This document shows, piece after piece, positions 1,559 through 31,452 of a DNA stretch of 32,000 bases (its first letter is position 1; each line of letters begins with the position of its first letter). Source of the stretch: Trichodesmium erythraeum IMS101. Its GTDB lineage: Bacteria > Cyanobacteriota > Cyanobacteriia > Cyanobacteriales > Microcoleaceae. The notes under the pieces were generated by a model. That model saw only the letters and a list, made by a program, of their open reading frames with translations. It had not been told where the DNA came from and did not search any database. The position numbers were made by a program, and so were the translations under genes. The stretch lies in the NCBI RefSeq assembly GCF_000014265.1, contig NC_008312.1:7590001-7622000 (forward strand), given 5' to 3'.

Positions 1559-1677
1559 TTTGATAACCCATTTATTGGTGACTCAAAGTTGAAAATAATT
1601 ATTATATGTTAGTTTTTGATAATTTGATATGACATCCTAAAATAAATACCAGTTAAACTTACCAATAATAATTACAT

Positions 1678-1992
1678 ATGGCCACGAGATTAATTGAGTT
1701 AGAAGGTGGTATTTTGGTTGAGGCAGAAGTTTCCGAAAATGAAGCCCAGCCTATTTCTAGTAATGAAATTAAAGCAGTTAAATCTACTTTTGCTAGGGTT
1801 AAACCTATATTAATTAGTATTAGCCGCCCTATTGCTGAAGCTTGGCAAGAAATTAATCAAGATATGGAAGTAGAACACGCTGAAGTTGAAGTAGGTTTTA
1901 ATTTTGAGGGGGAGGGTAATGTTGATGTTGCGAAAGCCAAGACTGGTAAAAATTTAAAGGTTAAGTTAGTTCTCAAACCTAAAAAAATCTGA
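1678..1992 (+). CDS. Trypco2-like (trypsin-co-occurring domain 2 / CU044_2847-family-like) small protein
   Basis: 104-aa ORF. Its stop TGA (1990-1992) lies 2 nt before the ATG (1995) of a protease-like frame, an operon-type junction. It has an N-terminal strand LIELEGGILVEAEV, an acidic/helical middle and a C-terminal AEVEVGFNFEGEGNVDVAKAKTGKNLKVKLVLKP. This matches the family pattern as I remember it. No HMM search was run. Confidence 0.7.
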   Translation: MATRLIELEGGILVEAEVSENEAQPISSNEIKAVKSTFARVKPILISISRPIAEAWQEINQDMEVEHAEVEVGFNFEGEGNVDVAKAKTGKNLKVKLVLKPKKI

Positions 1993-1994
1993 GA

Positions 1995-2452
1995 ATGAGT
2001 AACTTAGAAGAATTTATTGTTTCAATTACTAGCGCTAGTGCCAATGCTCTCAAGGCAGGTGTTATTAGAACTGGAACTACATTTTATCGGGAGCATCATT
2101 ATGTTTATTTGCTTACCTGGGCTCATATTGTTGAGGATGTCGGTAGCAAAGAAAATGTTTGAGTCAGTAATATTGCGGTAGCAGTTTTTGCAATAGGAGA
2201 TCTTAAGATTTTTTTTACTTCCTTCCTGGGAAGGGGTGGCGGTGGGTTAGCAGTTTTGGGGTTAGAAAAGCTGAATATCAAAACTTTTCTCCCTCACAAG
2301 TTTATCGGTAGCAGTCAACCTCAAGTTTCCGACAGCAGGTTATTTTCTCTATGGTGAGGAGCAAAAAAATCTTGCTTTCAACTGTTGATGGAACTTTAGG
2401 AAAAAAGGGTTTTCTCTGTCAAAATGATCAAAGAGTGGTAGTAAAAGTCTGA
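1995..2452 (+). pseudogene. decayed tandem duplicate of the 5' ~400 nt of the downstream trypsin-like protease gene
   Basis: From ATG 1995: MSNLEEFIVSITSASANALKAGVIRTGTTFYREHHYVYLLTWAHIVEDVGSKENV, then TGA at 2160-2162. The intact gene reads MSNLEKSIVLITSASDNSRKADVIGTGFAFYRKDNYTYLLTCAHVVEDVGGKENV. DNA similarity continues (gcaataggagat, ttagcagttttgggg, cttttctccctcacaagtttatc, ttttctctatggtgaggag, ggaactttaggaaaaaag) with an insertion, frameshifts and more stops. The 22-mer tctgagaatgagtaacttagaa occurs at 1988-2009 and again at 2448-2469, a 460-bp duplication period. Confidence 0.8.
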
Positions 2453-2454
2453 GA

Positions 2455-3471
2455 ATGAGTAACTTAGAAAAATCTATTGTTTTAATTACTAGTGCTAGTG
2501 ACAACTCTCGCAAGGCAGATGTTATTGGCACAGGATTTGCTTTTTATCGAAAGGATAATTATACTTATTTGCTAACCTGCGCCCATGTTGTTGAGGATGT
2601 AGGCGGTAAAGAAAATGTTTTAGTCAATGATATTCCGACAGAGGTTTTAGCAATAGGAGATGTGAAGAATTTTGATTTAGCAGTTTTGGGGGTGAAAAAC
2701 CTGAAGGTGGAACTTTTCTCCCTCACAAGTTTATCCGCGTCAGAAAATGTCAAGTTTTGGATAGCAGGTCATTTTCTCTATGGTGAGGAGAAAAAAATCT
2801 TGCTGGAAACTGTTGAGGGAACTTTAGGAAAAAAGCGTTTTGTTCGTCAAAATAATCAAACAGTGGCAGCTTGGAAATTGTTAATTAATGAGGGCGATCG
2901 CCTTCGTAAAGGTTATAGTGGGGCACCTGTTGTGGACTTGAAAGCTGACCGTGTGTTCGGTATCACTACAGATATGGAGAAAGATGGAAGGGAGGGGTTA
3001 GCTATTTCCGTAGAAGCTATGGAAAAAATTTGGCCTCAAGTGCCTCCTGTTATTTCTGATGTTATTTATGACTATGATAAATTAAAAAAATTACTTAGTG
3101 AGGGAAAATGGCAAGAAGCAGATGAAGAAACAGCTTGTTGTATGTTGAAAGTTGCAGGGCGAGAGGAGGAAGGTTGGCTAAGAGTAGAAGATATAGAAAA
3201 GTTTCCTTGTAGTGACCTCCGCACAATTGACCAACTTTGGGTAAAATATAGCGACGGTAAGTTTGGCTTTTCTGTGCAAAAGAAAATTTACCAGAGTTTG
3301 GGTGGTACGAAAGAGTATGACGAGAAAGTATATTGTTCCTTTGGGGATAAAGTCGGATGGCGTCAAGGAAGAAAATGGTTGTCTGAATTACAATTAACTT
3401 TTAGCTTAGATACGCATTTTGTGGAGCACCTACCTCCTAAGGTGGTCGGGGTACCTAGGCTACCTGGTTAG
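2455..3471 (+). CDS. trypsin-like (S1 fold) serine protease fused to a C-terminal GUN4 domain
   Basis: 338-aa ORF. Triad motifs occur in order: LLTCAHVV (His), NFDLAVL (Asp), KGYSGAPVV (Ser). The C-terminal half reads as GUN4: LSEGKWQEADEETACCMLKVAGREEEGWLRVEDIEKFPCSDLRTIDQLWVKYSDGKFGFSVQKKIY. It ends at TAG 3469-3471, after which the same frame stays open to 3570. Confidence 0.85.
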   Translation: MSNLEKSIVLITSASDNSRKADVIGTGFAFYRKDNYTYLLTCAHVVEDVGGKENVLVNDIPTEVLAIGDVKNFDLAVLGVKNLKVELFSLTSLSASENVKFWIAGHFLYGEEKKILLETVEGTLGKKRFVRQNNQTVAAWKLLINEGDRLRKGYSGAPVVDLKADRVFGITTDMEKDGREGLAISVEAMEKIWPQVPPVISDVIYDYDKLKKLLSEGKWQEADEETACCMLKVAGREEEGWLRVEDIEKFPCSDLRTIDQLWVKYSDGKFGFSVQKKIYQSLGGTKEYDEKVYCSFGDKVGWRQGRKWLSELQLTFSLDTHFVEHLPPKVVGVPRLPG

Positions 3472-3947
3472 GGGGAACCTTACATTATTGTGCGTTCGTG
3501 GCAGTATGGCGACTGGCGTCGACTGGCGCGAGGAGGCGCGAGTTCTCTTCTCTCCCGCAGAGACTTGTAGAGCTTAACATATAAGCGTTTCAGCCGTAAA
3601 GACAAATAACTTTAGCGAACCCAATTTTAGGAGTTTCCTTGAATTCAGCATTTTGATACCTGGCACCAACAGGCAGGCATCCCCCGAATGTCAAAAGTCC
3701 ATAAAAAAATCATCAAAAAACAGCATTGCCGCCTCTGGGTCATAACATTTGGCCAGAACAAACTGCCTCGTAACCTCCATTACCTCAGACTCCACAGGTT
3801 CCCATGTAGCCCAGGGAAGCCACATTTGTCCTGGAGACTGCTTATTTTCACGTTTTTTCTGCAAGACCTTCGGTAAAAACTTACTTCCTGATCAATTACC
3901 TCTTTTTTTTGTTTATACCTATACTTATACCTTTGGTAAAGCCCCCA

Positions 3948-4133
3948 TTAATTCTTAGCACATTTATCTAAAGTATTACCAAAGTACAAAAAAGCCGGAT
4001 GCCACTTGATCAAACCATCATCAGTCAAGCGGTCATAAGTGCCATAGTTCGAGAAATTATAAAAGAAACCCTGCTGCATATTAGCCGCTTTAGGGTTAGC
4101 GTGAATATATCGCAGAGAAATTATTCGTACAGT
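3948..4133 (-). pseudogene. possible C-terminal remnant of a REP-associated tyrosine transposase (RAYT / IS200-like Y1 transposase)
   Basis: The minus-strand frame is open from 4133 to 3948 and is closed upstream by TAA (4136-4134). It translates TVRIISLRYIHANPKAANMQQGFFYNFSNYGTYDRLTDDGLIKWHPAFLYFGNTLDKCAKN. LRYIHANPKAANM...FYNFSNY resembles the catalytic-tyrosine region of RAYTs as I recall it (RYIhlNPVRAnmV...Y.WSSY). The HUH-containing N-terminal part is absent. Motif-level evidence only. Confidence 0.35.
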
Positions 4134-4184
4134 TTACCCAGAGAAATGTCGCGATCGCGCGCTGAAAATATTGAAGTCATTTTT

Positions 4185-6368
4185 GAGGAAGCATTTTTGG
4201 GAGTTATTTTTGACGAGGTTTGAATTTTTCTCCATCAACATTTGACTAGATAATTTTCGTGATGTTGGGTTTTGTGACTTTTTTTGACTATAGAGTTTTA
4301 ATGATGTTGGGTTTGGTGACTAGAGAATTTTAGTGATGTTGGGTTTGGTGACTAGAGAATTTTAGTGATGTTGGGTTTGGCTAACTCAACCCCACCTACA
4401 AAATTGCGGAAGCGTTTTTGGGAATTATTTCTGATGAGGTTTGAATATTTCTCTGTCAACATTTGACTAGATAATTTTCGTGATGTTGGGTTTGGTAAAC
4501 TAAACCCCACCTACAAAATTGCGGAAGCGTTTTTGGAAATTATTTCTGATGAGGTTTGAATATTTCTCTGTCAACATTTGACTAGATAATTTTCGTGATG
4601 TTGGGTTTGGCTAACTCAACCCCACCTACAAAATTGCGGAAGCGTTTTTGGGAATTATTTCTGATGAGGTTTGAATATTTCTCTGTCAACATTTGACTAG
4701 ATAATTTTCGTGATGTTGGGTTTGGCTAACTCAACCCCACCTACAAAATTGCGGAAGCGTTTTTGGGAATTATTTCTGATGAGGTTTGAATATTTCTCTG
4801 TCAACATTTGACTAGATAATTTTCGTGATGTTGGGTTTGGTAAACTAAACCCCACCTACAAAATTGCGGAAGCGTTTTTGGGAATTATTTCTGATGAGGT
4901 TTGAATATTTCTCTGTCAACATTTGACTAGATAATTTTCGTGATGTTGGGTTTGGTAAACTAAACCCCACCTACAAAATTGCGGAAGCGTTTTTGGGAAT
5001 TATTTCTGATGAGGTTTGAATATTTCTCTGTCAACATTTGACTAGATAATTTTCGTGATGTTGGGTTTGGTCAACTAAACCCCACCTACAAAATTGCGGA
5101 AGCGTTTTTGGGAATTATTTCTGATGAGGTTTGAATATTTCTCTGTCAACATTTGACTAGATAATTTTCGTGATGTTGGGTTTGGTAAACTAAACCCCAC
5201 CTACAAAATTGCGGAAGCGTTTTTGGGAATTATTTCTGATGAGGTTTGAATATTTCTCTGTCAACATTTGACTAGATAATTTTCGTGATGTTGGGTTTGG
5301 CTAACTCAACCCCACCTACAAAATTGCGGAAGCGTTTTTGGGAATTATTTCTGATGAGGTTTGAATATTTCTCTGTCAACATTTGACTAGATAATTTTAG
5401 TGATGTTGGGTTTGGTCAACTCAACCCCACCTACAAAATTGCGGAAGCGTTTTTAGGAATTATTTCTGATGAGGTTTGAATATTTCTCTGTCAACATTTG
5501 ACTAGATAATTTTCGTGATGTTGGGTTTGGCTAACTCAACCCCACCTACAAAATTGCGGAAGCGTTTTTAGGAATTATTTCTGATGAGGTTTGAATATTT
5601 CTCTGTCAACATTTGACTAGATAATTTTCGTGATGTTGGGTTTGGTAAACTAAACCCCACCTACAAAATTGCGGAAGCGTTTTTGGGAATTATTTCTGAT
5701 GAGGTTTGAATATTTCTCTGTCAACATTTGACTAGATAATTTTCGTGATGTTGGGTTTGGTAAACTAAACCCCACCTACAAAATTGCGGAAGCGTTTTTA
5801 GGAATTATTTCTGATGAGGTTTGAATATTTCTCTGTCAACATTTGACTAGATAATTTTCGTGATGTTGGGTTTGGCTAACTCAACCCCACCTACAAAATT
5901 GCGGAAGCGTTTTTGGGAATTATTTCTGATGAGGTTTGAATATTTCTCTGTCAACATTTGACTAGATAATTTTCGTGATGTTGGGTTTGGCTAACTCAAC
6001 CCCACCTACAAAATTGCGGAAGCGTTTTTGGGAATTATTTCTGATGAGGTTTGAATATTTCTCTGTCAACATTTGACTAGATAATTTTCGTGATGTTGGG
6101 TTTGGTCAACTAAACCCCACCTACAAAATTGCGGAAGCGTTTTTGGGAATTATTTCTGATGAGGTTTGAATATTTCTCTGTCAACATTTGACTAGATAAT
6201 TTTAGTGATGTTGGGTTTGGCTAACTCAACCCCACCTACAAAATTGCGGAAGCGTTTTTGGGAATTATTTCTGATGAGGTTTGAATATTTCTCTGTCAAC
6301 ATTTGACTAGAGAATTTTCGTGATGTTGGGTTTGGTAAACTAAACCCCACCTACAAATTTGCGGAAGT
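4185..6368. repeat. non-coding tandem array: 17 regular 115-bp units (4406-6360), a diverged seed copy (4185-4405) and a terminal 8-nt stub
   Basis: Unit starts (gcggaagcg) are at 4406, 4521, 4636, 4751 ... 6246, an exact 115-bp period. The unit is gcggaagcgtttttgggaattatttctgatgaggtttgaatatttctctgtcaacatttgactagataattttcgtgatgttgggtttggNNaactNaaccccacctacaaaatt. Every unit has stops in all six frames. The seed contains three 30-32-bp sub-repeats (tagag(a)attttaRtgatgttgggtttggtgac, 4291-4380). Each unit has the palindrome GTCAAcatTTGAC (first at 4455-4467) and the hairpin GTTGGGTT-N10-AACCCCAC (first at 4485-4510). Confidence 0.95.
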
Positions 6369-7821
6369 AAATTAAAAGACTACGCAAAGTTACAAATTTC
6401 TTCTTATGTTATCTAGGCTCCGCTGCCAAAACTCAGCCAAACTGTACTGGAAATATTTCAACTAGAAATTAATTATTATATTCCTAAAAATGATTCTTGG
6501 TTTGCCAAAATGAACTTAGAATTAACTTGATATAATGGTGTATTGAAAATATTAATAGTACTTATTTTTGTTGGTGCGATACTGATAGAAATGTCATCAA
6601 AAAAAAGAAAATAAAGAGTAATAGTAAAAATATTGAAATATCTAAAAAATACACTCAAGTTAAACAGGAGTTATTATTAGTAATTAAAATGGGATTAAAA
6701 CTAAAATTGGGATATAAATCTGTGGAAAGTTTATCAGCTATTTCAAAAATAGATAGTCTGAAATTGTTAGAGAGAATAGTATTCCAAATTCCCCAAATTT
6801 CTCAAAATATGAGTTGCAAAAACTATATAATCAATAGTTAAAAAACATTGAATATTAGCCATTTGTTTACTGATATGATGAGATAACTTAAATATCTAAT
6901 ATAGTAAAAGTGATACATTTAATCAACCTGTTTCCTGATTACTAGAAATTCTACCTGAAGACTGAAAGATCAAAGCCGCTTTAAGGCAGGAAGTAAGAGG
7001 CATTATCCTAAAGTAATATAACTTAGATGAGTTCGAGCTTTTTTTTAACAAGTCCAGTGATTTTAAATAAGATTTAAGATTGTTAAATCTAGGTTTAAGG
7101 GATTTTCACCCAAAAAAAGCAATTGCTTGAGTACTATAAACTATCAAAGGATTGAAATATAAAGCTTACAGCTTTTTTTTTGGAAAAAAGTACTAGCTTT
7201 CTAGTGGCTTAAGCTCAGAGGTTATCATATTTTATGTAAGCAAATTGCAAAACTTTGATTATAACACAAAAAATCTGGAAATTTACAATCATTAATCAGG
7301 TTGGAAATTAAGGTTTAGTCATATAAAAAATGCAAAATTAAATTTTAAACAACTGATATCACAAAATCAGATATAGTTATAGTAGAATGATATAAATTAT
7401 TTTCACTTAATATCAAAAATAGGATGATTTAGGCGGCCATTTGTCGAGACTTACAAAAACTTGAATTAAGCTATAAAAAAAACGTTGTACAGTAGCTAGG
7501 GAGCGATACCAAGAGTGCAAAAATTAAGAGGAGAATACTAGAAAAATGTGAAAGATATAAATCCAGAAAACTTAGTATTTTTTAGATTAAATAAGTGTAA
7601 TACTAGGTAAAAAAAGAACTTATGAAAATTTGGAGGGACTAGGATACATGAAATAAAGCTATTTTATCCAGGCTAAAAAAATAAACACATTAATTGGTAT
7701 TGGTACAGAAATGTTGAATGCGGTAATAAAAGTTTACATATAAGCTTAACCTAGTCTATAGGTAACATTTTCATCTTATCCAATTCAAAAATAATAACGT
7801 ATATAGAATAGAGAAATAAAA

Positions 7822-8313
7822 ATGCCAGCACCCAACCACCTTAGTCAAAAACAACGTCAAAATTTACTGAAAATTTTTAGAGAAAGTGAAAGTCCTTTAA
7901 TTAGGAACAGAGTAATGATTTTGTTATTGATGAATGACGGAAAGACTTATGAAGAAATCAGTGATTTTTTACAAATATCTTATCCTACAGTAGCATATTG
8001 GGCTATGCAAGCAGACCCAGATCAACCGGAAAGTTTTACAGATGGAAGGTCCAAAGGAAATTATAGAAAAGCTACAGAACAATATATCAATTTGCTATTA
8101 AAAATAGTTGATAATAAACCATCGAAATACGGGTATCAATTTGGTAGTTGGACAGCAGAAAAATTAGTAAATCACCTGGAAAAAGAAACTGGCATTAAGT
8201 TGAGTAGTTCTCAAGTAAGGAGGATTTTAAAACAAAAAAAAGCAGATTTATTATCTGAGCAAAACAAAGCCAAGAATAGCGACAAAAATCAAAAAGAAAA
8301 AAAAATGACTTGA
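7822..8313 (+). CDS. IS630-family-like transposase N-terminal HTH/winged-helix fragment (no DDE domain)
   Basis: 163-aa ORF with the typical two-HTH N-terminus: RNRVMILLLMNDGKTYEEISDFLQISYPTVAYW and FGSWTAEKLVNHLEKETGIKLSSSQVRRILKQKK. A low-complexity K-rich tail follows. An A8 run lies at 8234-8241, where similarity ends. No catalytic domain follows in any frame. Confidence 0.55.
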   Translation: MPAPNHLSQKQRQNLLKIFRESESPLIRNRVMILLLMNDGKTYEEISDFLQISYPTVAYWAMQADPDQPESFTDGRSKGNYRKATEQYINLLLKIVDNKPSKYGYQFGSWTAEKLVNHLEKETGIKLSSSQVRRILKQKKADLLSEQNKAKNSDKNQKEKKMT

Positions 8314-8421
8314 GTTTTAATAAGAAAAAGCATTCCTTTTATTTTAATTGTTTGACCAGAGATTTTTTTTAGTCATTCCAACTTAATTATCCAAGATTTT
8401 TATATTACTCTTGAGCACTAA

Positions 8422-8534
8422 TATAGCAGTAAGCTCTGGCATATTTACAGTCCCAACCCTCTAAAGACAGTCCAAAGCCTCTAAAGTAAGTCCTTATAAC
8501 AAAAATTGTAAATACACCAGCGCACTTTGCTATA
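8422..8534. mobile_element. ~113-bp hairpin-forming MITE-like element, copy A
   Basis: tatagcagtaagctctggcatatttacag...ttgtaaatacaccagcgcactttgctata has imperfect ~29-nt inverted arms with termini TATAGCA/TGCTATA. It contains an internal direct duplication (ccctctaaagacagtcc / gcctctaaagtaagtcc). A second, clearly homologous copy lies at 16603-16714. Confidence 0.6.
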
Positions 8535-8975
8535 TCATCTATCCTTGCTATTTACAGTAGATGAGCTATTAAATGACGTACAGGATAAATAATAAAAACA
8601 TTGTAGTGAAAATTTTGCCCCTGGTTATTGTACCTAACCGGCAGCAACAAACCCCTGTATTTTTAAGGGGCAATAATATATTTTTCCTCAGTTATCTAGT
8701 CATTCCATTAATCTTTGTGTTACAAACTAACTATTTATTAACATAATTTTAAATGATAACTTCTACATTTATTTAAATATATTCATGTTTAAACGAGGAA
8801 AATAAACTATATTTAGTATTTGAGTTTAGGTTATAAATTTTGTGTTTTAGGGGATCTAGAGAACTTAGTAAAGAGCAGCAATATCGAGATAGTCTTAAGG
8901 GTTAAGACTATATAAACACCCTTGGGTAATTTCTGTCATTATATTGTGAACTACCCAACCTTAAAGGTACAGTAA

Positions 8976-10523
8976 CTAATTACCTGGAGTTGATATTACT
9001 AATCTTTCCAACATTTCTCTGTGCTTCGATACAGGAGCAAGAGTATTTGCTGCTATCATCCCACTTACTGCCACTGCAGGTAAACCAATACCAGGAAAAG
9101 TAGAGTCACCACAACATAATAACCCCGGTAATGCTATAGGTCCAGGGAATAACCCCTCCCCAGCACGAATTGCCGGACCATAAGACCCCCGATGACGACG
9201 AAGAAAACGTTCGTGAGTTATGGGAGTTCCTACTAATTTAACTTCACAACGGGAACGAATATCAGGTATTATTCTCTCTAACCCTCGCCACATTACCTCA
9301 GCTCTTTCCTGCTTTTGTTGTGCATATTCTTGACTCTTTCTATCCATACCCTGCCATAGTTGATATGGTTCATTTCCTGGAGTATAAACATGAATAACGT
9401 GCTTTTTTGGGGGTGCAAGAGTAGAGTCTATTAAGGATGGAATAGATACTAATACAACATTTTGGGGCGCATCTATTTGATCCCAATGATTGACAATAAT
9501 ATGATGACAGGATAGATCTGGTTTGATATCTGTAGCATCAATACCTAAATGTAAGTGCATAAAACTATTACATTCTGGTGTTGCTTGTCGTTCTTCCCGC
9601 CAAGATGTTGAAACAGCATCCTCTGAAAGTAATTTCAAAGTATCCCAGACAGAAGCATTTGAAACTACTGCTTGCTTTGCCCGAATTTCCTCTCCATTCT
9701 GCAACAATACCCCAACAGCACGCCCACCTCTAATTACTATCTCTTCCACATGAGCATTTAACATTAGTTGACCGCCATGACGTTTTAACCCCCTCACTAA
9801 AGCATCAACTATTGCTCCACTACCACCTATAGGATAGTCAAGTACAACTCCCGGTCGATACCATTCAGCAAACATAAATGCAACTTCAGCAGCACTGGTA
9901 CCATTTGCTGGCAAGCCTGAAAGTAGGAAGCAAAGCAAATCAAACCAATTTCGGATAAAAGGGTCTGTGACAACCTCTTCAAGAATTTCGGAAAACGCTC
10001 CCGTTAACTTAGCAATGTTAAAAGTGTGCTTTGCCATAGTAGGTAGAAATTGCCCCATTGTCATTATTGCTCCTAGGTCAAAACGGACAGAAGCAGGAGG
10101 AAGAGCGATCGCTGCTTCTGCTAGTGGAGCCATAATTTTTTGTAGTTTACGCCACTCTGCTACAGCACCTTCACCTCTCAGCTTTTGGAGAACATCACAA
10201 AATTGGTCTGCACCCACTGATGTATTAAAGTTACCTTCTGGTAAACAACAACCCCAAGTCTTATAAGTTACACAGGGTACTGACTCACCGATAGCATCCA
10301 AAACTTGTGCTAGTGGGTTAGTAGAAGGGCGATAGGAAAGACCAGAATGTAAAGATGGTCCTGAGTCAAATTTAAATCCCTGACGCTCAAAACTATGAGC
10401 AGCACCTCCAGCAATAGAATGACTTTCGCAAACTACGACATCAAAACCATAGTGCGCTAGTAAAGCAGCACAGCTTAAACCACCAATTCCACTACCAATT
10501 ACAATTACATCTGTTTGAGACAT
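8976..10523 (-). CDS. phytoene-desaturase-family NAD(P)/FAD-dependent oxidoreductase (carotenoid-isomerase-like)
   Basis: 515-aa ORF. N-terminal dinucleotide-binding motif DVIVIGSGIGGLSCAALLAHYGFDVVVCESHSIAGGAAHSF. The length and the C-terminal GDSTFPGIGLPAVAVSG motif are typical of the CrtI/CrtISO superfamily. Exact substrate is unknown. Confidence 0.8.
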   Translation of the reverse strand: MSQTDVIVIGSGIGGLSCAALLAHYGFDVVVCESHSIAGGAAHSFERQGFKFDSGPSLHSGLSYRPSTNPLAQVLDAIGESVPCVTYKTWGCCLPEGNFNTSVGADQFCDVLQKLRGEGAVAEWRKLQKIMAPLAEAAIALPPASVRFDLGAIMTMGQFLPTMAKHTFNIAKLTGAFSEILEEVVTDPFIRNWFDLLCFLLSGLPANGTSAAEVAFMFAEWYRPGVVLDYPIGGSGAIVDALVRGLKRHGGQLMLNAHVEEIVIRGGRAVGVLLQNGEEIRAKQAVVSNASVWDTLKLLSEDAVSTSWREERQATPECNSFMHLHLGIDATDIKPDLSCHHIIVNHWDQIDAPQNVVLVSIPSLIDSTLAPPKKHVIHVYTPGNEPYQLWQGMDRKSQEYAQQKQERAEVMWRGLERIIPDIRSRCEVKLVGTPITHERFLRRHRGSYGPAIRAGEGLFPGPIALPGLLCCGDSTFPGIGLPAVAVSGMIAANTLAPVSKHREMLERLVISTPGN

Positions 10524-14595: not shown

Positions 14596-16332
14596 TTAGG
14601 GAGCTTTCCAAATATTAATCTTCCGGTCCCAACCACCACTAACGATGATTTGCCCATTAGGACTAATTGCTACGACACTAATATAACTGTTGTGTCCCCT
14701 TAAACTTCCTTTTAATTTACCTGTACTCAGTTCCCAAAATTTGATTGTTTTATCCCAACTACCACTAATTAAAGTTTTTCCATCAGGAGTAATAACTATT
14801 GACCAAACTCCATCTAAATGTTCTTTTAAATTATGGATTAATTTACCTGTCTGTAAGTTCCAAATATTAATTGTGCCATTACTACTACTACTAGCTAAGA
14901 TTTGACTATCAGGACTAAAAACTACAGACAAAATTGAAACAGAATTAGTATTAATAGTACGAACAAGTTGTCCTGTCTGCAAATTCCACAATTTAATCTG
15001 ATTATCCTTGCTACCACTAGCTAAAAATTGCCCATCTGGACTAATGGCGATCCCATTGACTATCTCAGAATGTCCGGCTATTGTTTGCAGCAACTCCCCG
15101 CTAGCCAAATTCCAAATTTTAATAGTCCCATCCCAACTCCCACTAGCAAAAATCTTACTATTGGGAGCGATCGCAACTCCATCTACCACATCAGTATGTC
15201 CTGTGAGAGTTTGCACCAAGCTAATATCATTGATATTTTTATTTTTAGGTAGTTTCCATATTTTAATAGTTTTGTCATCACTTCCACTAATAACAAATTG
15301 TTCATCAGGAGTTACTGCAACTGAGTTTACTGACTCTGGATGTGCTTTCCAGATAGCTATAATTTCTCTATTCTCGATATCCCAAACTGAAATCATACCA
15401 TTACTGCTTCCCATAACGATGTAAGCATTTAGAACAACTATTGAATTAACTATTCCACTAATTTCATCAGTAATTGCTTTTGCGAGAGTAAAGTCCAGGA
15501 CAGTTTCAGTATCGTCCTCTCTGGTAGCAGTATTTGTAGCAACAGGATTTGTTGTTTCTGTTGGACTTGCTGGAGCTTGGATATTTTCAGGTATTTGAGA
15601 AACAATGGGCAATGAAACTCCTTGTCGCCAGTCCCAAAAAGTATTAATTTCAATCCCTCCTGAGACAATGACATCAGAGTTTTCTTGCAATTTGACAATA
15701 CCATTAATAGCTACTAAGCGACCTTCTTCATTAAGTACAGGTCCACCACTCATCCCCGCTCTGACTAAATTATCATATAGTAAACTATAACCAGCAACAG
15801 GTTGCTGACGACCTTTCACCACTCCTGGGGTGCTCAGAAAAATTCGTTGCTTGAGATTGCTACCAGAACGAGGCCATCCCCCCACAAATACCTTAGTTCC
15901 AGAAACTAATTTAGTGGAGTCTCCTGTTTCGGCAATGGGGTAGTTTTGAGAACTGCTAAATGGTATGATGGCTAAGTCTATATTTGGCAATTGCTTGATT
16001 AAGGTATAGTAAACAGGGTGCATTTTTCCATCAGGTGTACGTACTTGGTAATCTCCTACTGTATTAACAACGTGCCAGTTGGTGAGTACATAATATGTGT
16101 CTCCTTGTTTTTCAACAATTACTCCTGAGCCACTTCTGTTTCTTCCGTCAATTCTAACTGTAATTTCGGCTGCAATTTTATTAATTTCTGATGCTGTTGA
16201 TCCCAGAGCAATTTTTTGTGTTATTAGTGAATTAGTGATGGTAATAGCAACAATAAAATTCCTGATATTGGTTGTGTTTATATTGAGTAAGTTGCTAATA
16301 ATAATTATGACAATTGTTTTCTTTAAATTCAT
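14596..16332 (-). CDS. membrane-anchored or exported trypsin-like serine protease fused to a 7-bladed WD40 propeller
   Basis: 578-aa ORF. Hydrophobic N-terminus (TIVIIIISNLL, FIVAITITNSLI). S1 triad motifs VLTNWHVV, NIDLAII, AGMSGGPVL. P/T-rich linker (QAPASPTETTNPVATNTA). Seven WD repeats end in VWDI, IWKL, IWNL, LWNL, IWNL, FWEL, IWKA. Confidence 0.9.
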   Translation of the reverse strand: MNLKKTIVIIIISNLLNINTTNIRNFIVAITITNSLITQKIALGSTASEINKIAAEITVRIDGRNRSGSGVIVEKQGDTYYVLTNWHVVNTVGDYQVRTPDGKMHPVYYTLIKQLPNIDLAIIPFSSSQNYPIAETGDSTKLVSGTKVFVGGWPRSGSNLKQRIFLSTPGVVKGRQQPVAGYSLLYDNLVRAGMSGGPVLNEEGRLVAINGIVKLQENSDVIVSGGIEINTFWDWRQGVSLPIVSQIPENIQAPASPTETTNPVATNTATREDDTETVLDFTLAKAITDEISGIVNSIVVLNAYIVMGSSNGMISVWDIENREIIAIWKAHPESVNSVAVTPDEQFVISGSDDKTIKIWKLPKNKNINDISLVQTLTGHTDVVDGVAIAPNSKIFASGSWDGTIKIWNLASGELLQTIAGHSEIVNGIAISPDGQFLASGSKDNQIKLWNLQTGQLVRTINTNSVSILSVVFSPDSQILASSSSNGTINIWNLQTGKLIHNLKEHLDGVWSIVITPDGKTLISGSWDKTIKFWELSTGKLKGSLRGHNSYISVVAISPNGQIIVSGGWDRKINIWKAP

Positions 16333-22358: not shown

Positions 22359-22811
22359 ATGAAAATTTTATCATTAACTTCTATTTTTACTGCCACAATA
22401 ATTGGTTTTTTAAATCTCTCTATCAGTAACCTTTCTGCTAAGGCTCAAACTCCTAATTTTTTTTGTGGTAAAATTGGGAATACTCCAGCTACAATAGCTA
22501 ATAAACAAGGTAATAATATTCCGATTATTCTCTGGAGCGCTAATAATTATTTTGCTCAATCAGGAGAAGATACTCTTACCAGATGTACCAGAGTATCTGG
22601 AATTTTATCTACTCAAAAACAAAATGGATATAGGAATATTACTGTTAGTATATACAAACAGGGACAACCCATTATTTGTGCTGCTATAGGTGGTTCTTGT
22701 CGATTATTATATCAAGTTCCTCATGGTCAAAATCCTCAACAAGCTCAACAAGAATTATTGAAAAGAATTGTTGATCCTAAACCAAATTTACTACCCATTA
22801 ATATTCATTAA
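22359..22811 (+). CDS. COP23 (circadian oscillating protein 23)-family secreted protein
   Basis: 150-aa ORF with a signal peptide (MKILSLTSIFTATIIGFLNLSISNLSAKA). Family-like pattern FFCGKIGNTPATIANKQGNNIPIILWSANNYFAQSGEDTLTRCTRVSG with conserved Cys spacing. Confidence 0.7.
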   Translation: MKILSLTSIFTATIIGFLNLSISNLSAKAQTPNFFCGKIGNTPATIANKQGNNIPIILWSANNYFAQSGEDTLTRCTRVSGILSTQKQNGYRNITVSIYKQGQPIICAAIGGSCRLLYQVPHGQNPQQAQQELLKRIVDPKPNLLPINIH

Positions 22812-23118: not shown

Positions 23119-25794
23119 CTACCTACTATTCTGACAAAATTCTTCTACCCTCATAAAATAGTTTGGTCTTTTTAATAAAAACCTACATCCTTTACTCAAA
23201 AGCTCCTCTAAATTTTCCAAATAAATCAACCAAATTTGACCGTTACTATCAGCTACAGCAATTTTTTTTCCATCTGAACTAAAGGCTATATCAATTACAT
23301 TTTCGGAAAATTCAAATTGGTTAATTTGTCGCCCTGATAAATTCCAAAGTCTTACAATACTATCAATTCCAACAGTAGCTATTAATCTTCCATCAGGACT
23401 AAAATTAACTAGCTTAGTATCTAAATGTAAACTTTGAAAATTATTGACTAATCTCCCAGTATAAGTCTGCCACATTTCTACTATTCCATTTGACGTTGCT
23501 GTTAGTAATATCTGAGGTTTATTAATGCTAAAATTCATACTAATAGCTTCTACATCTAGGATTTTAAATTTATTTTCAGATAAATTCCATAATCTAATAG
23601 TAGATTTCCCATCTAATGTAGCTAGAAAATTATCATTAGGGCTAAAATGAATGTTTCTAATTAAACCATGATCATCCAAAACTTGATCAGATGATATATT
23701 TATCGGCAGCGATGATAAGTTCCAAATTTGTACAGGAATATTTATGCCAGCAGTTGCTAAATACTTACCATTAGCACTAAAACTAATACTATTAACTTCA
23801 GTTTGAGATATTTCTAATACATATAATTTTATCCCTAAATTTTTCTTTAATAGACTCCATATTTTTACTGTGCCGTTACTACCAGCAGTTGCTAAATATT
23901 TATTATCAGGATGAAAAATTAGACTATTAATTGATTTTTGTTCTGTTTCCCATTCTGTAATTTTTTTGCCTTCCAGATTCCAAATAATTACTTTTCCATC
24001 TACTCCTGCTGAAGCTAAAAATTCTTGATTTGGACTAAATTTTACACTGGTAACTGCACCATTATGCCCTTGCAAAATAATTTTTCTTTTCTGAAGTATA
24101 CTATCTTGAAATTGTTCTTGTTCGTCAAGTTTATCAAGAATCATTTGTAAAGCTAATATTGGTCGAGTCCCAGGATATTCTGCTAGAGGAGTATTGTTAT
24201 TTACTAAAGATTTTAATCTTTTTCCTGCAGATATAGCTTTGGGTAAAGCTTCTAATAATTCCTGATTTGTTGCTGACTTTTCGATAGCTAATAATAAAGC
24301 GTCAGTGCCAATTTGTTCAATTTCATGACTAGATTGTGCTAGTTTAAATTTTTGATAGGCTAATATAGAAAAACCTATGGATAAAATCAAAGATATGCTA
24401 AAAATAGTGGAGCCTATTTGAATCCAAAGTTGAGCTTTTTGTTGTGCTTTTACAACTTCTGCTTGAGCTTTTTTAGTTTCAATTTTTGTTAATTCTAGAG
24501 CTTGTGTCTGAGCATCTAATACTAATTTTTGGCTAGTAGTCAAAAATTGGAAATCTTGATTTCTTAAACTTTTTCCTGTTGCCCAAACTAAAGCTGATTG
24601 TAAATGTTTTCCTTGCAATAGATATGATTTATCTGCACAGTTAGAATTAATCCATGCTTTAATTTCTTCTGAATAGGGAGGTAATTTTTCCAATTCTTCA
24701 AGAATCATATTTTCATGAAAAACAGTCCTATATATTAGATTAGCAACTATTAACTTATTATCTCGTTTAACTACTAATCCAGATAACCTAAGTTCCATTT
24801 GTTCTGAACTATTATCTGCTATTATTCCAGTCAAGTTATTCTGTAAAATTTCTTGATATAACCCTAATCTTCTGACTATTCGTTTATTCTTTCTTAAAAT
24901 GCGGTTGCGAATAGTCTTTAAATGTTCTGGCATGTCTTGTGCTTCCCAATTATGAACAATTTTTGACCTAACAATTCCTGCTACTTCTTCCGCTGGGTTA
25001 ATAATTAACTCTCCATTTTCAATTAAGAGTTTACAGACTTTTTGAGTTAAAAATGGTTGCCCTCCAGTCCAAAGTAAAACCTCTTTTAAAACTGCTTCTG
25101 GTTTCTGACAAATTCCCACTAGTCCATCTATTAATGAGAAAGCTTCATCTAATTGAAAGCCAGTTAATTCAATTGCTCTTCCAATATTAAAAGGTGTACT
25201 ACTTTTATCCTGACATAAATCTTGAGGTGTACTAACTCCTAACAAAGCAAAAGTTAGACGATTATATTCATTATTATGAGCACGTTTGTTGTAACAAGCT
25301 CGAATAAATCCTAAAAAATCATCGACTGGAAAATCTAGGGCTAGAATACTATCAATTTCATCAATAAAAATTACAATATTCTGATTTATTTTTGTTAGTA
25401 ATACAGTGTTAATAAATTCACTTAATCTTTGCACGGGGGCAAGATAATCTCGCTCTCGCCACCAAGTACGAATATTTACATATTCTGACAGATTAAAATT
25501 ATTTTCTAATATCCGCAGAATACCTGCATACCACTGTTCGATGGTTACTCCCCGATTACCTATTTCTGAAATGTCGATTGCTGCACAACAAATACCTTGT
25601 TTTTGTAATCTTTGAATTGTTCTAACTTGCAAACTAGATTTTCCCATTTGACGAGAATTAAGAACATAACAAAACTCACCTGCTTTCAGACCTTCATAAA
25701 AGTATTCATCTGCTCGTCTTTGAACATAATTCGGTGCATTTATAGGAAGACAACCACCAACTTGATAATAAGATTTTTGCCTTGAAGTGTTCAT
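23119..25794 (-). CDS. AAA_35 (AAA-like domain) NTPase - coiled coil - TM helix - 7-bladed WD40 protein
   Basis: 891-aa ORF. The N-terminus matches the cyanobacterial AAA-like domain almost motif for motif: [109 protein letters not shown]. Then a coiled coil ([23 protein letters not shown]), a TM helix ([25 protein letters not shown]), a helical spacer and seven WD repeats (IIWNL, KIWSL, QIWNL, RLWNL, EMWQT, RLWNL, IWLIYL). Confidence 0.9.
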
Positions 25795-27414: not shown

Positions 27415-30400
27415 CTAGCTATTTTCTAATCCCTGCAATTTCTTTTTTGCCCAGTGGCGTAGTTGTTCGTCTGGGTCGTTTGCGACTCTGTCTTGTAATA
27501 GTGGGAGAATTTGCGGATGGTCTGGATATTGTTTGACTATTGCCGCTAGTACAATTTGTCGAGGGTTCTTATCCAAATATTCTTCACGTTGAAAGGGGTC
27601 ATTGAGAGCGATGTGATAAAACAGCTCAAAAATTCCCGGTTCATGTTTCCAACCAGTAACTATTTGTCGCACTGCTTCACCTCGCACAGTGGAACTATGA
27701 TCAGAGCTCACCCTTTCCTTGAGTAAATCTAAAATTCCCGGTTCATGTTTCCAACCAGTAACTATTTGTCGCAGTGCTTCACCTCGCACAGTGGAACTAT
27801 GATCAGAGCTCATCCTTTCCTTGAGTAAATCTAAAATTCCCGGTTCATCTTTCCAACCCGCAGCTATTTGTCGCAGTGCTTCACGTCGCACAGTAGAACT
27901 ATGATCAGAGCTCACCCTTTCCTTGAGTAAATCTAAAATTCCCGGTTCATCTTTCCAACCAGTAACTATTTGTCGCAGTGCTTCACGTCGCACAGTAGAA
28001 CTATGATCAGAGCTCACCCTTTCCTTGAGTAAATCTAAAATTCCCGGTTCATCTTTCCAACCAGTAACTATTTGTCGCAGTGCTTCATGTCGCACAGTGG
28101 AACTATTATCAGAGTCTACCCATTGTTTGAGTAAACCAAAAGTTCCCCGCTGATGTTTCCAACCAGTAGCTATTTGTCGCACCGCTTCACGTCGCACATC
28201 CCAATTTTTATCAGACTCTACCCTTTGTTTGAGTAAATCAAAAATTCCTGGCTGATGTTTCCAACCAGCAGCTATTTGTCGCGCTGCTTCACGTCGTACA
28301 TTTGGGTCATCATCAGACTCTACCCTTTGTTTGAGTAAATCAAAAATTATCGGCTGATATTTCCAACCAGTAGCTATTTGTCGCAGGGCTTCAACCCTCA
28401 CATACCAGTCATCATCAGATACCAGCCTTTGTTTGAGTAAATCAAAAATTCCCGGCTGATGTTTCCAACCAGTAGCTATTTGTCGCACTGCTTCACGTCG
28501 CACATCCCAATTTTTATCAGATACTACCCTTTGTTTGAGCAAATCAAAAATTCCCGGCTGATGTTTCCAACCAGTAGCTATTTGTCGCACTGCTTCACGT
28601 CGCACATCTGGGTCATCATCAGAGACTACCCATTGTTTAAGTAAATCAAAAATTCCCGGCTGATGTTTCCAACCAGTAGCTATTTGTCGCACTGCTTCAC
28701 GTCGCACATCCCAATTCTCATCAGACTCTACTCTTTGTTTGAGTAAATCAAAAATTTCCGGCTGATGTTTCCAACCAGTAGCTATTTGTCGCAGGGCTTC
28801 ACGTCGCACATCCGAATTTTCATCAGAGAATACCCATTGTTTAAGTAAATCAAAAATTTCCGGCTGATGTTTCCAACCAGTAGCTATTTGTCGCACTGCT
28901 TCACGTCGCACATCCGAATTTTCATCAGAGAATACCCATTGTTTAAGTAAGTCAAAAATTTCCGGCTGATGCTTCCAACCAGTAGCTATTTGTCGCAGAG
29001 CTTCACGTCGCACATCCTGGTCATTCTCAGAGAATACCCATTGTTTAAGTAAGTCAAAAATTTCCGGCTGATGCTTCCAACCAGTAGCTATTTGTCGCAG
29101 AGCTTCACGTCGCACATCCTGGTCATTGTCAGAAGCTACCCTTTGTTTGAGCCAAGTATAGGTTAAACGCTCATCTCTCCAGGTTGTAGCTACTACTTGC
29201 ACAGCTTGAGTACGAATTTCATAAACTAAGGCTGCATTTTTCTGATAAATTTCTTTAGAATAATTGTCATATTCTTCATAAGAATAACCAAGGTCATACC
29301 CAGTCAAGTGTTTTAATTTATTTAATAACCGATATCCGATATCACTAAAACTAATATTCTGATTATTTCTGACTTCAAACAAACACTTACCAGCTAAAAA
29401 TAAATTCAGAAATTTTTTCTCTTCTCCATCTTGCTCCATTAAATAATAAATTATTTTTCTCGCAAACTTAGTATCTATCATCCCTACAATTAACCGCAAA
29501 ACTTCATGCCATTTTTCATCCTGCCAGTGCTGACCAAAAACTTCTTCTATAAGTCTGTCTGGAGACATTTTCTGTTCTTTTTCAAACAGCCAAACAAAAC
29601 TCCAAGCACAAAAATATTCTAAAAAAGTTCTATGCACAAAAGCATAATATTCTGCGCCAACAAAACACAAAATAAAATTGCGACTTCGCAACTGTTCCAT
29701 CAGGGCTCTAGCCACAGTTTTTGGATCATTAATATCTTCACTTTTTAGATAAGCTCTGATAATCTTTTCTAAATCATTTCCATGAATCAAATTACCAGCT
29801 AAACCTGCCTTATTTTCCTGCATAAAAAAAGCTACCTGACGCAAAATTGCTTGCTTATCTTTATAGTCAATAGTCATGGGGTTAAGATTCGCATCAATTA
29901 ATGCCCTTTCCATATCCCATTGCTGCAGTAAAATCCGGGAAGCTTGATGATAAAGTTCTGCTCTATCTCTGGGTAATTCTTGATGACGATTCAAAATAGC
30001 CATCATTGTTAATAACAAGGGATTTTCTGACAATTGCTTAATAGCTGAAGAATCTTTAATTGCCCGTTTTAACCTTTCTCTTTTCCGCTCCTTTTCTCGC
30101 TCATCTTGATAAGTCAAATCGTGCCAACGTTGAATAAAAGTTTCAATTTGTTCCGACTCCAAATCTTGCAATATAAAATGATAAAATTCTGCATCCCGGA
30201 GTTTTTGTGGCTTATAACCAATTACCCGAGAAGTAACAATAACTTGCACATTTTTATAGTCATTAGTAAACCTATGAATATCAGTAATTATCTGTTCTCT
30301 TTTGGCAAGCTCGAAAACTTCATCTAACCCATCAAACATCATAATTGCATTACCATTTTGCAATTTAGTATGAAGTTCTTCCTGAGGTAAATGGCAACTT

Positions 30401-31452
30401 ACACCACTACCTTTTTCCAAAAAATCTAGAAAACTATTACATTTATTCTCATTATGGTTGCGTACATAAGTCCGCAGTTCAATTAATAGAGGAATTGGGT
30501 TTAAAGATAAATCTTTCAGAGGTAATTCTGCCCATTGCAAAGCGATATATTGTAATAAAGTAGATTTACCAGAACCGGGGTCTCCCAGAATAACTAAATA
30601 TTTATAGTTGTTATATTCTATTAATTCTAAAACTGAGTGAGTCTGTTGCTCAAAATACCTACGCCGGACACTTTTCAGTTGTTCTTGAGAAAGTTCTGCT
30701 TCTAATTGTCTAGTGTCTCTTAATTTGGAGAGATATTCTTTAGGAATTTCATGTATTTGAGGCATAAATTCCTGAGATTCTCGGACATTTTGAGGAATAA
30801 ACATTTTCCATAATTTCAATTCATTATAACTATAACCACTGGTCTCTAAACTTTCTAATTTGAGATTTCCATATTGTTCTAGGATTCCTTCTTGATATTT
30901 TTTTAAGTCAAATTCTGGTCTGATTTTAATGTCTTTGTTTACAATCTCTTCCAGATTTTTTGAATCTAATATTGACCGTAGTTCTTGGGAATTTCGGATA
31001 ATATTTTTGACATTTCTCTGATGTTGCTTTGCTAGAAATTCCCAGTCAAAATTATCTGGTAAAGGTGGGTTTATTTGTTTCCATGAAATAGCCAGCTTGT
31101 GAGTATCTAAAATTTTGATTTTATTATCAAAAGCACTAATCAAAACCTCTAAAACAGATCCTTCTTTAATAAAAGATTTGAAATATTGAGAATACTTATT
31201 TAAGTCACTTTCACTCAATTCAGCATTTTCTAACTCTTGATATCCTAAGTCTAAAAAATCTTTAATTGCTTGTTTAGTAGCTTTTTTTAAAGGTTCTCCA
31301 TTTGCTATTCCACCAAAAGCATCAGAGAAACTTTGCTTAAAAAAATCTTTAACATAGTCTTCGGCAGCGCCCTTAGCTAATACTCCGACAACTTCATTCG
31401 CAATACATTTAACCGCTTCACTACTTCCCCAAGTAATTAACCATTCAATCAT
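27415..31452 (-). CDS. STAND NTPase: helical N-terminal domain - NACHT - helical/winged-helix region - ~15 HEAT-like 34-aa repeats
   Basis: 1345-aa ORF. Walker A is LVILGDPGSGKSTLLQYI and Walker B is AIMMFDGLDEV, with NACHT-type downstream motifs (VIVTSRVIGY, NPLLLTMMAIL). The C-terminal third is near-identical units of the form DVRREALRQIATGWKHQPEIFDLLKQWVFSxxxx. Confidence 0.9.
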   Translation of the reverse strand: MIEWLITWGSSEAVKCIANEVVGVLAKGAAEDYVKDFFKQSFSDAFGGIANGEPLKKATKQAIKDFLDLGYQELENAELSESDLNKYSQYFKSFIKEGSVLEVLISAFDNKIKILDTHKLAISWKQINPPLPDNFDWEFLAKQHQRNVKNIIRNSQELRSILDSKNLEEIVNKDIKIRPEFDLKKYQEGILEQYGNLKLESLETSGYSYNELKLWKMFIPQNVRESQEFMPQIHEIPKEYLSKLRDTRQLEAELSQEQLKSVRRRYFEQQTHSVLELIEYNNYKYLVILGDPGSGKSTLLQYIALQWAELPLKDLSLNPIPLLIELRTYVRNHNENKCNSFLDFLEKGSGVSCHLPQEELHTKLQNGNAIMMFDGLDEVFELAKREQIITDIHRFTNDYKNVQVIVTSRVIGYKPQKLRDAEFYHFILQDLESEQIETFIQRWHDLTYQDEREKERKRERLKRAIKDSSAIKQLSENPLLLTMMAILNRHQELPRDRAELYHQASRILLQQWDMERALIDANLNPMTIDYKDKQAILRQVAFFMQENKAGLAGNLIHGNDLEKIIRAYLKSEDINDPKTVARALMEQLRSRNFILCFVGAEYYAFVHRTFLEYFCAWSFVWLFEKEQKMSPDRLIEEVFGQHWQDEKWHEVLRLIVGMIDTKFARKIIYYLMEQDGEEKKFLNLFLAGKCLFEVRNNQNISFSDIGYRLLNKLKHLTGYDLGYSYEEYDNYSKEIYQKNAALVYEIRTQAVQVVATTWRDERLTYTWLKQRVASDNDQDVRREALRQIATGWKHQPEIFDLLKQWVFSENDQDVRREALRQIATGWKHQPEIFDLLKQWVFSDENSDVRREAVRQIATGWKHQPEIFDLLKQWVFSDENSDVRREALRQIATGWKHQPEIFDLLKQRVESDENWDVRREAVRQIATGWKHQPGIFDLLKQWVVSDDDPDVRREAVRQIATGWKHQPGIFDLLKQRVVSDKNWDVRREAVRQIATGWKHQPGIFDLLKQRLVSDDDWYVRVEALRQIATGWKYQPIIFDLLKQRVESDDDPNVRREAARQIAAGWKHQPGIFDLLKQRVESDKNWDVRREAVRQIATGWKHQRGTFGLLKQWVDSDNSSTVRHEALRQIVTGWKDEPGILDLLKERVSSDHSSTVRREALRQIVTGWKDEPGILDLLKERVSSDHSSTVRREALRQIAAGWKDEPGILDLLKERMSSDHSSTVRGEALRQIVTGWKHEPGILDLLKERVSSDHSSTVRGEAVRQIVTGWKHEPGIFELFYHIALNDPFQREEYLDKNPRQIVLAAIVKQYPDHPQILPLLQDRVANDPDEQLRHWAKKKLQGLENS
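27621..29150 (-). repeat. 15 tandem 102-bp coding repeats (34-aa HEAT-like units) inside the NACHT gene
   Basis: The 102-bp period is seen directly: ccaaccagtaactatttgtcgc recurs at about 27650, 27752, 27956, 28058. Neighbouring units are almost identical at DNA level. Differences concentrate in the codons for the 5 residues preceding VRRE. Confidence 0.9.

Follow-up and report, generated by a model that had tools for sequence, protein, structure and literature searches.

A stretch of 32,000 nucleotides from Trichodesmium erythraeum IMS101 (contig NC_008312.1 of assembly GCF_000014265.1, positions 7,590,001 to 7,622,000 of the forward strand), referred to here as the window, carries two plus-strand genes, the first of which (1678..1992) encodes a 104-amino-acid protein of the Trypco1/CU044_2847 family, and the second (2455..3471) a fusion of a Trypsin_2 protease with a GUN4-like domain. 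The locus is probably a stand-alone, two-gene cassette of the conflict or programmed-cell-death type, which pairs a protease with a latent effector, lacks a nucleoside triphosphatase (NTPase), and is decaying in IMS101. In the working that we propose, a cue would bind to the GUN4-like domain and turn the protease active, the protease would cleave Trypco1, and Trypco1 would permeabilise the membrane, leading to cell death or arrest, with no NTPase being required. The parts of Trypco1 as substrate and pore former and of the GUN4-like domain as sensor, as well as the nature of the cue, are inferred by analogy with related systems. Both genes of the pair are already in public annotation: the first product is identical to ABG53886.1 of T. 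erythraeum IMS101 (“CU044_2847 family protein”), and the second to ABG53887.1 (WP_011614181.1, UniProt Q10V37; “GUN4-like”, “GUN4 domain-containing protein”).

A first-pass annotation, made from the letters of the sequence alone, had described the first gene as Trypco2-like. The open reading frame and the wider Trypco family stand, whereas the subfamily has to be corrected: the protein matches the Trypco1 profile (PF19493; E value 1.5e-7; 32.4 bits, where the gathering score is 24.6; positions 5-95 of the 98 in the profile) and the NCBIfam profile for CU044_2847 (NF041216; E value 4.9e-12; 46.4 bits, with the cut-off at 23), but gives no match to Trypco2 (PF19631) at E values up to 1, while a positive control, SsPepco of Streptomyces subrutilus, matches that profile at 5e-18. 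An AlphaFold2 (AF2) monomer model, which is of low confidence, places strands at residues 2-8 and 12-18, a low-confidence linker, a helix at 37-62, and strands at 68-76 and 91-99, i.e., the helix and hairpin known from Trypco2, with an additional hairpin at the N-terminus.

The protease domain (approximately 2455-3039) matches Trypsin_2 at residues 25-170 (E value 3e-8) and has a full catalytic triad, as the first-pass annotation had it. His44, Asp74 and Ser155 lie in the motifs TCAHV, FDLAVL and GYSGAPV (codons cat, gat and agt at 2584, 2674 and 2917), are invariant among close homologues, and reach a conservation of at least 90% in the set of 60 proteases encoded downstream of Trypco1 genes at other loci. 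In an AF2 model of a 379-amino-acid relative, the protease reaches a predicted local distance difference test (pLDDT) score of about 90, and its nearest folds according to Foldseek are MarP (Rv3671c), MucD, HtrA, DegP and DegS (E value about 3e-9 and template modelling score about 0.65 to Rv3671c). Enzymes of this type are switched on by the binding of a ligand to a C-terminal regulatory domain, and the nearness of the fold to the allosterically regulated MarP, HtrA and DegS would fit a sensor role for the GUN4-like module. The window protein shares with these S1 proteases the chymotrypsin fold and the design of a protease followed by a regulatory, ligand-binding C-terminal domain; unlike them, it has no PDZ domain and no signal peptide, is coupled to a Trypco1 gene, and is only about 20% identical.

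The C-terminal module (approximately 3049-3435) is a match to GUN4 (PF05419; residues 202-327, E value 1.4e-39, 135.9 bits), and it also finds the solved structures 1Z3X of T. elongatus (E value 8e-19) and 1Y6I, SynGUN4 (E value 8e-15), so that the earlier GUN4 assignment is upheld. By its sequence, the domain is a paralogue of the magnesium chelatase cofactor; it is 72-76% identical to the GUN4 domains of caspase-GUN4 proteins. Conservation with SynGUN4 extends over helices α1-α6 and the HLP motif as far as Pro208 of SynGUN4, whereas the N-terminal helical domain is replaced by the protease, and the paralogue domain lacks LxNxLR with its Arg214 and has a different terminal motif, Cx[LIVMF]. 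Most likely, the domain acts as a ligand- or protein-binding switch, at the position where paralogues of the fusion protein have PDZ, FGE-sulfatase, WD40, STAND or other sensor domains.

That the two genes belong together is indicated by their recurrence elsewhere. Among 79 metagenomic loci with Trypco1 homologues, the downstream gene could be read over at least 150 amino acids in 60, and in 55 of these it matches Trypsin_2, the spacing to Trypco1 being -23 to +35 nucleotides in most cases. The C-termini of these proteases are varied: FGE-sulfatase (seven), iSTAND (six), CHASE2 and AAA_16 (three each), WD40, TPR, SAVED and TIR (two each), and nSTAND1 and GUN4 (one each, the latter at L102), while many have no recognised domain. 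The reverse survey, from the side of the trypsin-GUN4 fusion, comprised 14 loci; a full-length alignment search gave mainly single-domain matches, and full-length homologues were collected individually. An intact Trypco1 gene lies directly upstream at seven of the 14, a remnant at one, and none at six. The intact arrangement is found in T. erythraeum (the window and metagenomic contigs L080/L081), Scytonema tolypothrichoides (L168), Brasilonema octagenarum (L173), contigs from JGI (L170-172) and ENA (L174, a 587-amino-acid version), L102, and a Microcoleaceae metagenome-assembled genome whose protein has an Ig-like insert (L005); in all but the T. erythraeum versions, the two genes are spaced by 5 nucleotides. 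The remnant (L082-84) covers profile positions 46-106 and is cut by a rearrangement at the point that corresponds to window position 1814. Trypco1 is absent in Okeania SIO2B3 and KiyG1 (L086, L088), Dapis M229 (L087), two Tychonema (L010, L056), and Okeania SIO2F4 (L062). Trypco1 plus trypsin-GUN4 is thus a recurrent cassette in at least two cyanobacterial orders, though not an obligatory one, and the linkage claimed in the first-pass annotation holds in distant cyanobacteria.

The protease domain is 72-81% identical to GUN4-type orthologues and likewise to FGE-sulfatase-type paralogues of Okeania. Together with the GUN4-domain identities across fusion types, this suggests that the Trypco1-protease unit and the GUN4-like unit have been shuffled independently, as would be expected of effector and sensor modules. 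The Trypco1-less trypsin-GUN4 genes of Okeania and Dapis, as well as a VMAP-type paralogue, adjoin toxin-antitoxin pairs (L086 7367-7956, L088 5367-5956, L087 7284-7851 and L006 817-1832), which consist of DUF433 with Mut7-C/DUF5615, ParDE, or a nucleotidyltransferase with HEPN; these surroundings look like variable, island-like regions. No conserved third gene emerged from the neighbourhood survey around the homologues, the neighbours being unrelated genes for a transaldolase, a hydrolase, ParA, a P450, a peptide ABC transporter, a deformylase, a hydrogenase, and toxin-antitoxin systems.

In IMS101 itself, the cassette has been disturbed at several points. According to the first-pass annotation, the Trypco gene ends 2 nucleotides before a protease-type start; the spacing is right (the TGA of Trypco1 ends at 1992 and is followed by an ATG at 1995), but this start opens merely a 55-amino-acid stub (1995-2162), which is part of a decayed partial tandem duplicate (1983..2442, plus strand) recognised by DNA alignment to 2443-2869 and by blastx. 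The dead copy consists of the last 9 nucleotides of Trypco1, the junction TCTGAGAATGAG, and approximately 140 codons from the start of the protease gene. At the DNA level, it is 81-86% identical to 2443-2869, with a 30-nucleotide insertion, small insertions and deletions, and a stop at 2160, and in blastx it matches residues 1-138 of protease paralogues over frames 1, 2 and 3. The live protease gene starts 462 nucleotides downstream of Trypco1. The same dead copy is present in L080 and L081, which are 99% identical to the window, whereas L082, a related Trichodesmium-like contig from TARA, lacks it. Being equally distant from GUN4-type and FGE-type paralogues (55-59% amino acid identity), it may have originated either by tandem duplication in situ or by a deletion between two paralogous operons.

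The protease gene, previously taken to be intact over 2455-3471, turns out to be a truncated allele. Relative to L080, a deletion of 17 nucleotides with its junction at 3436..3440 (plus strand; DNA and protein alignment) shifts the frame after Pro327, so that the reading frame stops 11 codons later and 41 residues are lost, leaving 338 amino acids. L080 and L081 encode a protein of 379 amino acids, and other Trichodesmium carry 379-385; the ancestral 3' end persists as an out-of-frame remnant (3419..3577, plus strand), which encodes ...RWSGYLGYL...LFSPAETCRA. The 338-amino-acid allele is real and not a one-off error, as it is shared by IMS101, strain GBRTRLIN201 and several ENA contigs. Trypco1 is altered as well: it has an Asp at position 83, a lineage-specific change (Y83D) from the Tyr or Phe present in 98 of 100 homologues, rare residues at positions 10 and 91, and an end changed by an extra base in an A-run (KKI instead of KKLENE). 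Between the window and L082, the ratio of nonsynonymous to synonymous substitution rates (dN/dS) is 0.50 for the protease-GUN4 gene (0.40 for the protease, 0.56 for GUN4), compared to 0.13 for a neighbouring FAD oxidoreductase gene and 0.19 for Trypco1 codons 46-104, which indicates that selection is relaxed or diversifying but still imposes some constraint. Synonymous divergence (dS) also differs threefold, at 0.145 for protease-GUN4 (2455-3435) and 0.454 for the oxidoreductase (8976-10523), a difference that may reflect a recent exchange of the cassette between lineages of Trichodesmium, by recombination or gene conversion. The cassette has been damaged independently in two sister lineages, since that of L082 lost the first 45 Trypco1 codons via its own rearrangement. 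Because the dead 460-nucleotide duplicate separates the genes, the 17-nucleotide deletion removes 41 residues, and Trypco1 bears Y83D, the IMS101 copy is probably impaired, though it need not be dead.

Whether decay has run to completion is the point at which the strongest alternative arises, namely that the locus is a dead relic with neither product active in IMS101, one of many decaying Trichodesmium genes. The three independent lesions within 1.9 kb, the separate loss in L082, and the raised dN/dS next to that of the neighbouring gene would all be explained in this way, and the 32-kb window as a whole has only 14 open reading frames of at least 100 amino acids. Nevertheless, both reading frames remain open, with a full triad and a GUN4 core that scores 136 bits; the 338-amino-acid allele and the Trypco1 sequence are each unchanged on many contigs, dN/dS stays below 1 (and at the low value given above for Trypco1 codons 46-104), and natural Trypco1 variants of 103 amino acids exist, which show that a short C-terminus is tolerated. 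A complete loss of function therefore appears possible, yet unlikely.

The mechanism proposed for the cassette takes its template from recent work on a Trypco2 system. Trypco1 and Trypco2 were defined by Kaur, Burroughs, Iyer and Aravind (eLife 2020, PMC7159879) from VMAP ternary systems, in which a trypsin-like peptidase has either the one or the other, but not both, as its neighbour. Evans et al. rename both “Pepco” and show that SsPepco of S. subrutilus forms pre-assembled, denaturation-resistant β-barrels of nine to ten subunits, that SsPepco has a C-terminal tail of 20 residues, in which the trypsin domain of the adjacent Avs4 cuts after Ile97, and that truncated SsPepco kills Escherichia coli, for which an amphipathic N-terminal helix is needed (bioRxiv 10.1101/2025.11.14.688446). 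A Trypco2-trypsin system has thus been characterised by experiment, although the first-pass annotation was aware of none with a trypsin-GUN4 partner. The window resembles SsPepco and SsAvs4 in that a small Trypco-family gene stands directly 5' of a trypsin-like protease fused to a sensor, and in that the partner protease has a complete triad and a C-terminal sensor-type domain. It differs in that the small protein is a Trypco1 with an extra N-terminal β-hairpin and without a C-terminal tail or an Ile97-type site, and in that the sensor is GUN4-like instead of the STAND ATPase of Avs4. FGE, transmembrane STAND and peptidoglycan-binding sensors, as well as cyanobacteria, are listed by Evans et al., while GUN4 is not mentioned (bioRxiv 10.1101/2025.11.14.688446). 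By analogy, Trypco1 is most likely a putative protease-activated, oligomerising and membrane-active protoxin; since the defining feature of activation, the cleavable tail, is not found, we infer a Pepco-like working and do not claim demonstrated membership.

The combination of a Trypco/Pepco gene and a trypsin-like protease with a swappable sensor is already known, the GUN4 fusion having been published in 2020 and the mechanistic template in 2025. What the present analysis adds is modest: that Trypco1 and trypsin-GUN4 form a conserved, stand-alone cassette without an NTPase; that, judging by its sequence, Trypco1 could not be subject to the gating demonstrated for Trypco2; and that decay affects the IMS101 copy, the full-length allele being retained in other Trichodesmium.

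Several observations weigh against the cassette working as proposed. SsPepco, whose sequence was taken from the supplementary table of the paper, is a Trypco2 by Pfam (E value 5e-18), and the Trypco1-family profile of the window protein aligns to it over 20 columns only, a strand motif EVExAE..F..G.GN, with an hhalign probability of 5%; with this marginal match as its sole trace, direct homology between Trypco1 and SsPepco was rejected. The AF2 monomer of Trypco1 reaches a pLDDT of just 56. In 87 of 100 Trypco1 homologues, just 2-6 residues lie beyond the last strand, and the window protein ends 3 residues past Pro101, so that, as judged from these alignments, Trypco1 has no equivalent of the cleavable tail of Trypco2, and its activation, if it occurs, must therefore differ. 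Because six of the 14 trypsin-GUN4 loci are without Trypco1, the protease need not act on it. A search of the literature on Tery_4971-4974 found nothing, including no expression or phenotype data. Finally, a dN/dS of 0.5, being below 1, leaves some constraint on the protease-GUN4 gene, so that impairment of the IMS101 copy is not proven. As a side observation, Ile26 and Ser27 (window 1753-1758) are each 92% conserved in Trypco1 and lie inside the variable, low-pLDDT linker that runs from the N-terminal hairpin to the helix. Given that related proteases cut after Ile in both substrates of Evans et al., Ile26-Ser27 may be considered a candidate cleavage site, and removal of the N-terminal hairpin a candidate activation step.

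The same observations would also suit a different role for Trypco1, as an inhibitor, chaperone or adaptor of the protease, with another cellular protein as the lethal or regulatory substrate. The missing SsPepco-type tail, the marginal similarity to Trypco2, and the persistence of trypsin-GUN4 without Trypco1 in Okeania, Dapis and Tychonema are readily accommodated by such a role, and one study of diversity-generating retroelements treats Trypco domains as adaptors. However, the Pepco of Evans et al. comprises Trypco1 as well as Trypco2, the EVExAE..F..G.GN strand motif is common to both, and the predicted strand-strand-helix-strand-strand layout, with strands of alternating charged and hydrophobic residues, would fit a barrel former. 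We regard a non-toxic Trypco1 as improbable and retain the protoxin as its more plausible function.

The cassette also has to be placed relative to the NTPase-centred systems in which Trypco genes were first described. It resembles the VMAP (MoxR-vWA) ternary systems in the linkage of a Trypco1-family gene to a trypsin peptidase, but stands alone: no MoxR, vWA or VMAP-C component was found at the window or the homologous loci, and an adjacent NTPase, be it MoxR, STAND or other, is missing from all 14 trypsin-GUN4 loci and from within 11 kb in the window. VMAP-C was not detected by Pfam in the window protease, whereas it is present in the paralogue at L006. The first-pass annotation had correctly noted the lack of an adjacent NTPase, but had regarded it as unusual; it is not an anomaly, because no homologous locus has one and because many partner proteases carry NTPase-free C-termini such as FGE-sulfatase, CHASE2, WD40, TPR and GUN4. 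It had further pointed to candidate NTPase or sensor genes elsewhere in the window. These exist, as three more conflict-type genes on the minus strand, encoding a Trypsin_2-WD40 protein with a hydrophobic N-terminus (14596-16332), an AAA_35-WD40 protein (23119-25794), and an NNH2-NACHT-HEAT-repeat STAND protein (27415-31452). A tie to the cassette is not borne out: they are 11-25 kb distant and oppositely oriented, housekeeping genes stand in between (oxidoreductase, DUF1501/DUF1800, GGDEF-EAL and COP23, the last at 22359-22811 being Tery_4982), no adaptor domain is shared between them and the cassette, and no Trypco gene precedes the Trypsin_2-WD40 protease.

The lower end of the GUN4-like domain bears on what it might sense. 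Fusions of GUN4 to kinases, caspases, trypsin and TIR were previously reported from cyanobacteria, together with a proposal of tetrapyrrole-dependent allostery (PMC7159879), so that the porphyrin-gated proteolysis suggested in the first-pass annotation had already been published as a hypothesis. In SynGUN4, Arg214 is “absolutely essential” to porphyrin binding, and helices α7 and α8 complete the “greasy palm” (Verdecia et al. 2005, PMC1084334); Asn211 is required for bilin binding, and the motif is missing from cyanobacterial GUN4 paralogues (PMC10156173). SynGUN4 204-209 (GHLPL) aligns to EHLPL at 323-328 of the 379-amino-acid relative, where LxNxLR (L209-R214) reads LAATFL; in the window it is frameshifted to PKVVGV. 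The window protein stops 11 residues past the equivalent of Pro208, and α7-α8 of the GUN4 palm are not present. In the AF2 model of the 379-amino-acid protein, the GUN4 core reaches pLDDT values of 70-87, which drop below 50 at 321-370, before a terminal helix at 366-378. Porphyrin gating thus finds no support in the sequence of the intact proteins, and is unlikely in the IMS101 allele, because the region after the Pro208 equivalent has been frameshifted away. A C-terminal motif of the type [LF]FSRxETCx[LIVM] or SLAxRLVxCNI (Cx[LIVMF]-COOH) occurs in 36 of 59 GUN4-paralogue fusions (trypsin, kinase, caspase/CHAT, TIR) and in none of 24 FGE fusions, and persists out of frame at window 3545-3577. 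In tblastn searches, the GUN4 domain had no phage matches, and its plasmid matches are cyanobacterial, apart from a weak one to a TIR protein of Streptomyces clavuligerus. Window 3052-3444 also matches the PADLOC model “PD-T4-6” (PDLC04062; model positions 304-426, E value 8e-41), which implies a GUN4-like C-terminal domain in the model. This domain was not confirmed on the E. coli kinase, and the S. thermophilus protein of that name is a PASTA kinase; the link was dropped and the match not used as defence evidence.

Against this background, it seems very improbable that the protease is porphyrin-gated and belongs to an NTPase-centred conflict system, with the NTPase supplied in trans by a STAND or AAA gene of the window. 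Such an arrangement would echo the MoxR-vWA/VMAP ternary systems and the tetrapyrrole gating through GUN4 proposed in the same paper (PMC7159879), the AAA_35-WD40 and NNH2-NACHT-HEAT genes are at hand, and iSTAND, nSTAND1 or AAA_16 fusions exist among the proteases linked to Trypco1. However, the distance, orientation and missing adaptor of the window NTPase genes, the uniform lack of an adjacent NTPase at the 14 loci, a protease without VMAP-C, and an Arg214/LxNxLR site that is absent in the full-length relative and deleted in the window all argue for the NTPase-free cassette instead. A housekeeping role in pigment metabolism, in which the GUN4-like domain docks the protease on the H subunit of magnesium chelatase or another tetrapyrrole protein for turnover and Trypco1 serves as cofactor, is likewise highly unlikely: orthologous GUN4 binds ChlH and porphyrins, and hemE (URO-D) lies 4.5 kb upstream in L082, but this linkage was not seen at other loci, the distribution is patchy with frequent loss or truncation and relatives on plasmids, shuffling has joined the domain to TIR, caspase, CHAT and kinase modules, dN/dS is elevated, and GUN4 paralogues lack the ligand motif, a Synechocystis paralogue having no gun4 phenotype (PMC10156173). 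Taken together, the Trypco match, the linkage to the protease and the GUN4 assignment, on which the earlier reading had been built, hold in substance.

The region around the pair offers few further clues. A promoter-like site, TTGATA-16-TAAAAT (1616..1643, plus strand), lies about 35 nucleotides 5' of the Trypco1 start and is weak evidence, as the number of promoter-like sites and terminators in the region is not above chance (shuffled expectation for the promoter sites); between 1992 and 2455, the scan gave no plus-strand promoter-like site. About 760 nucleotides downstream of the protease-GUN4 stop begins a tandem array of approximately 19 copies of a 115-nucleotide unit (4234-6488), which are 94-98% identical and contain identical 52-amino-acid open reading frames on the minus strand; neither the array nor the rest of the window had a match in an Rfam scan. 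Window 3845-8999 (about 5.1 kb) corresponds to 0.9 kb in L082 (8305-9197), and the extra DNA, which contains the array and an HTH_32/HTH_23 transposase-like reading frame (7822-8313), appears to have been inserted between the cassette and the gene for the FAD oxidoreductase.

Going beyond the proposed working, one may conjecture, with considerable doubt, that the GUN4-like domain senses a tetrapyrrole or bilin, or else a breakdown product, accumulating under photo-oxidative stress or upon expression of cyanophage pigment genes, that it licenses the HtrA-like protease to activate Trypco1 without an NTPase and by a non-Trypco2 route, e.g., at Ile26-Ser27, and that the cassette adds to bloom-terminating cell death in Trichodesmium strains with the 379-amino-acid protein. 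The IMS101 copy itself is already annotated, belongs to a family known from earlier work, and has partly degraded. If the reading of the cassette is true, it would represent a minimal, NTPase-free, protease-gated pore system in multicellular cyanobacteria, and a pigment-binding-domain paralogue acting as a sensor would offer a handle on what the GUN4-like fusions to kinases, caspases, TIR domains and proteases sense. Moreover, the tail-less Trypco1 could reveal a second way to license Pepco-type pores, and the polymorphism between 338 and 379 amino acids in Trichodesmium would provide a natural comparison for cell-death or phage-resistance phenotypes.

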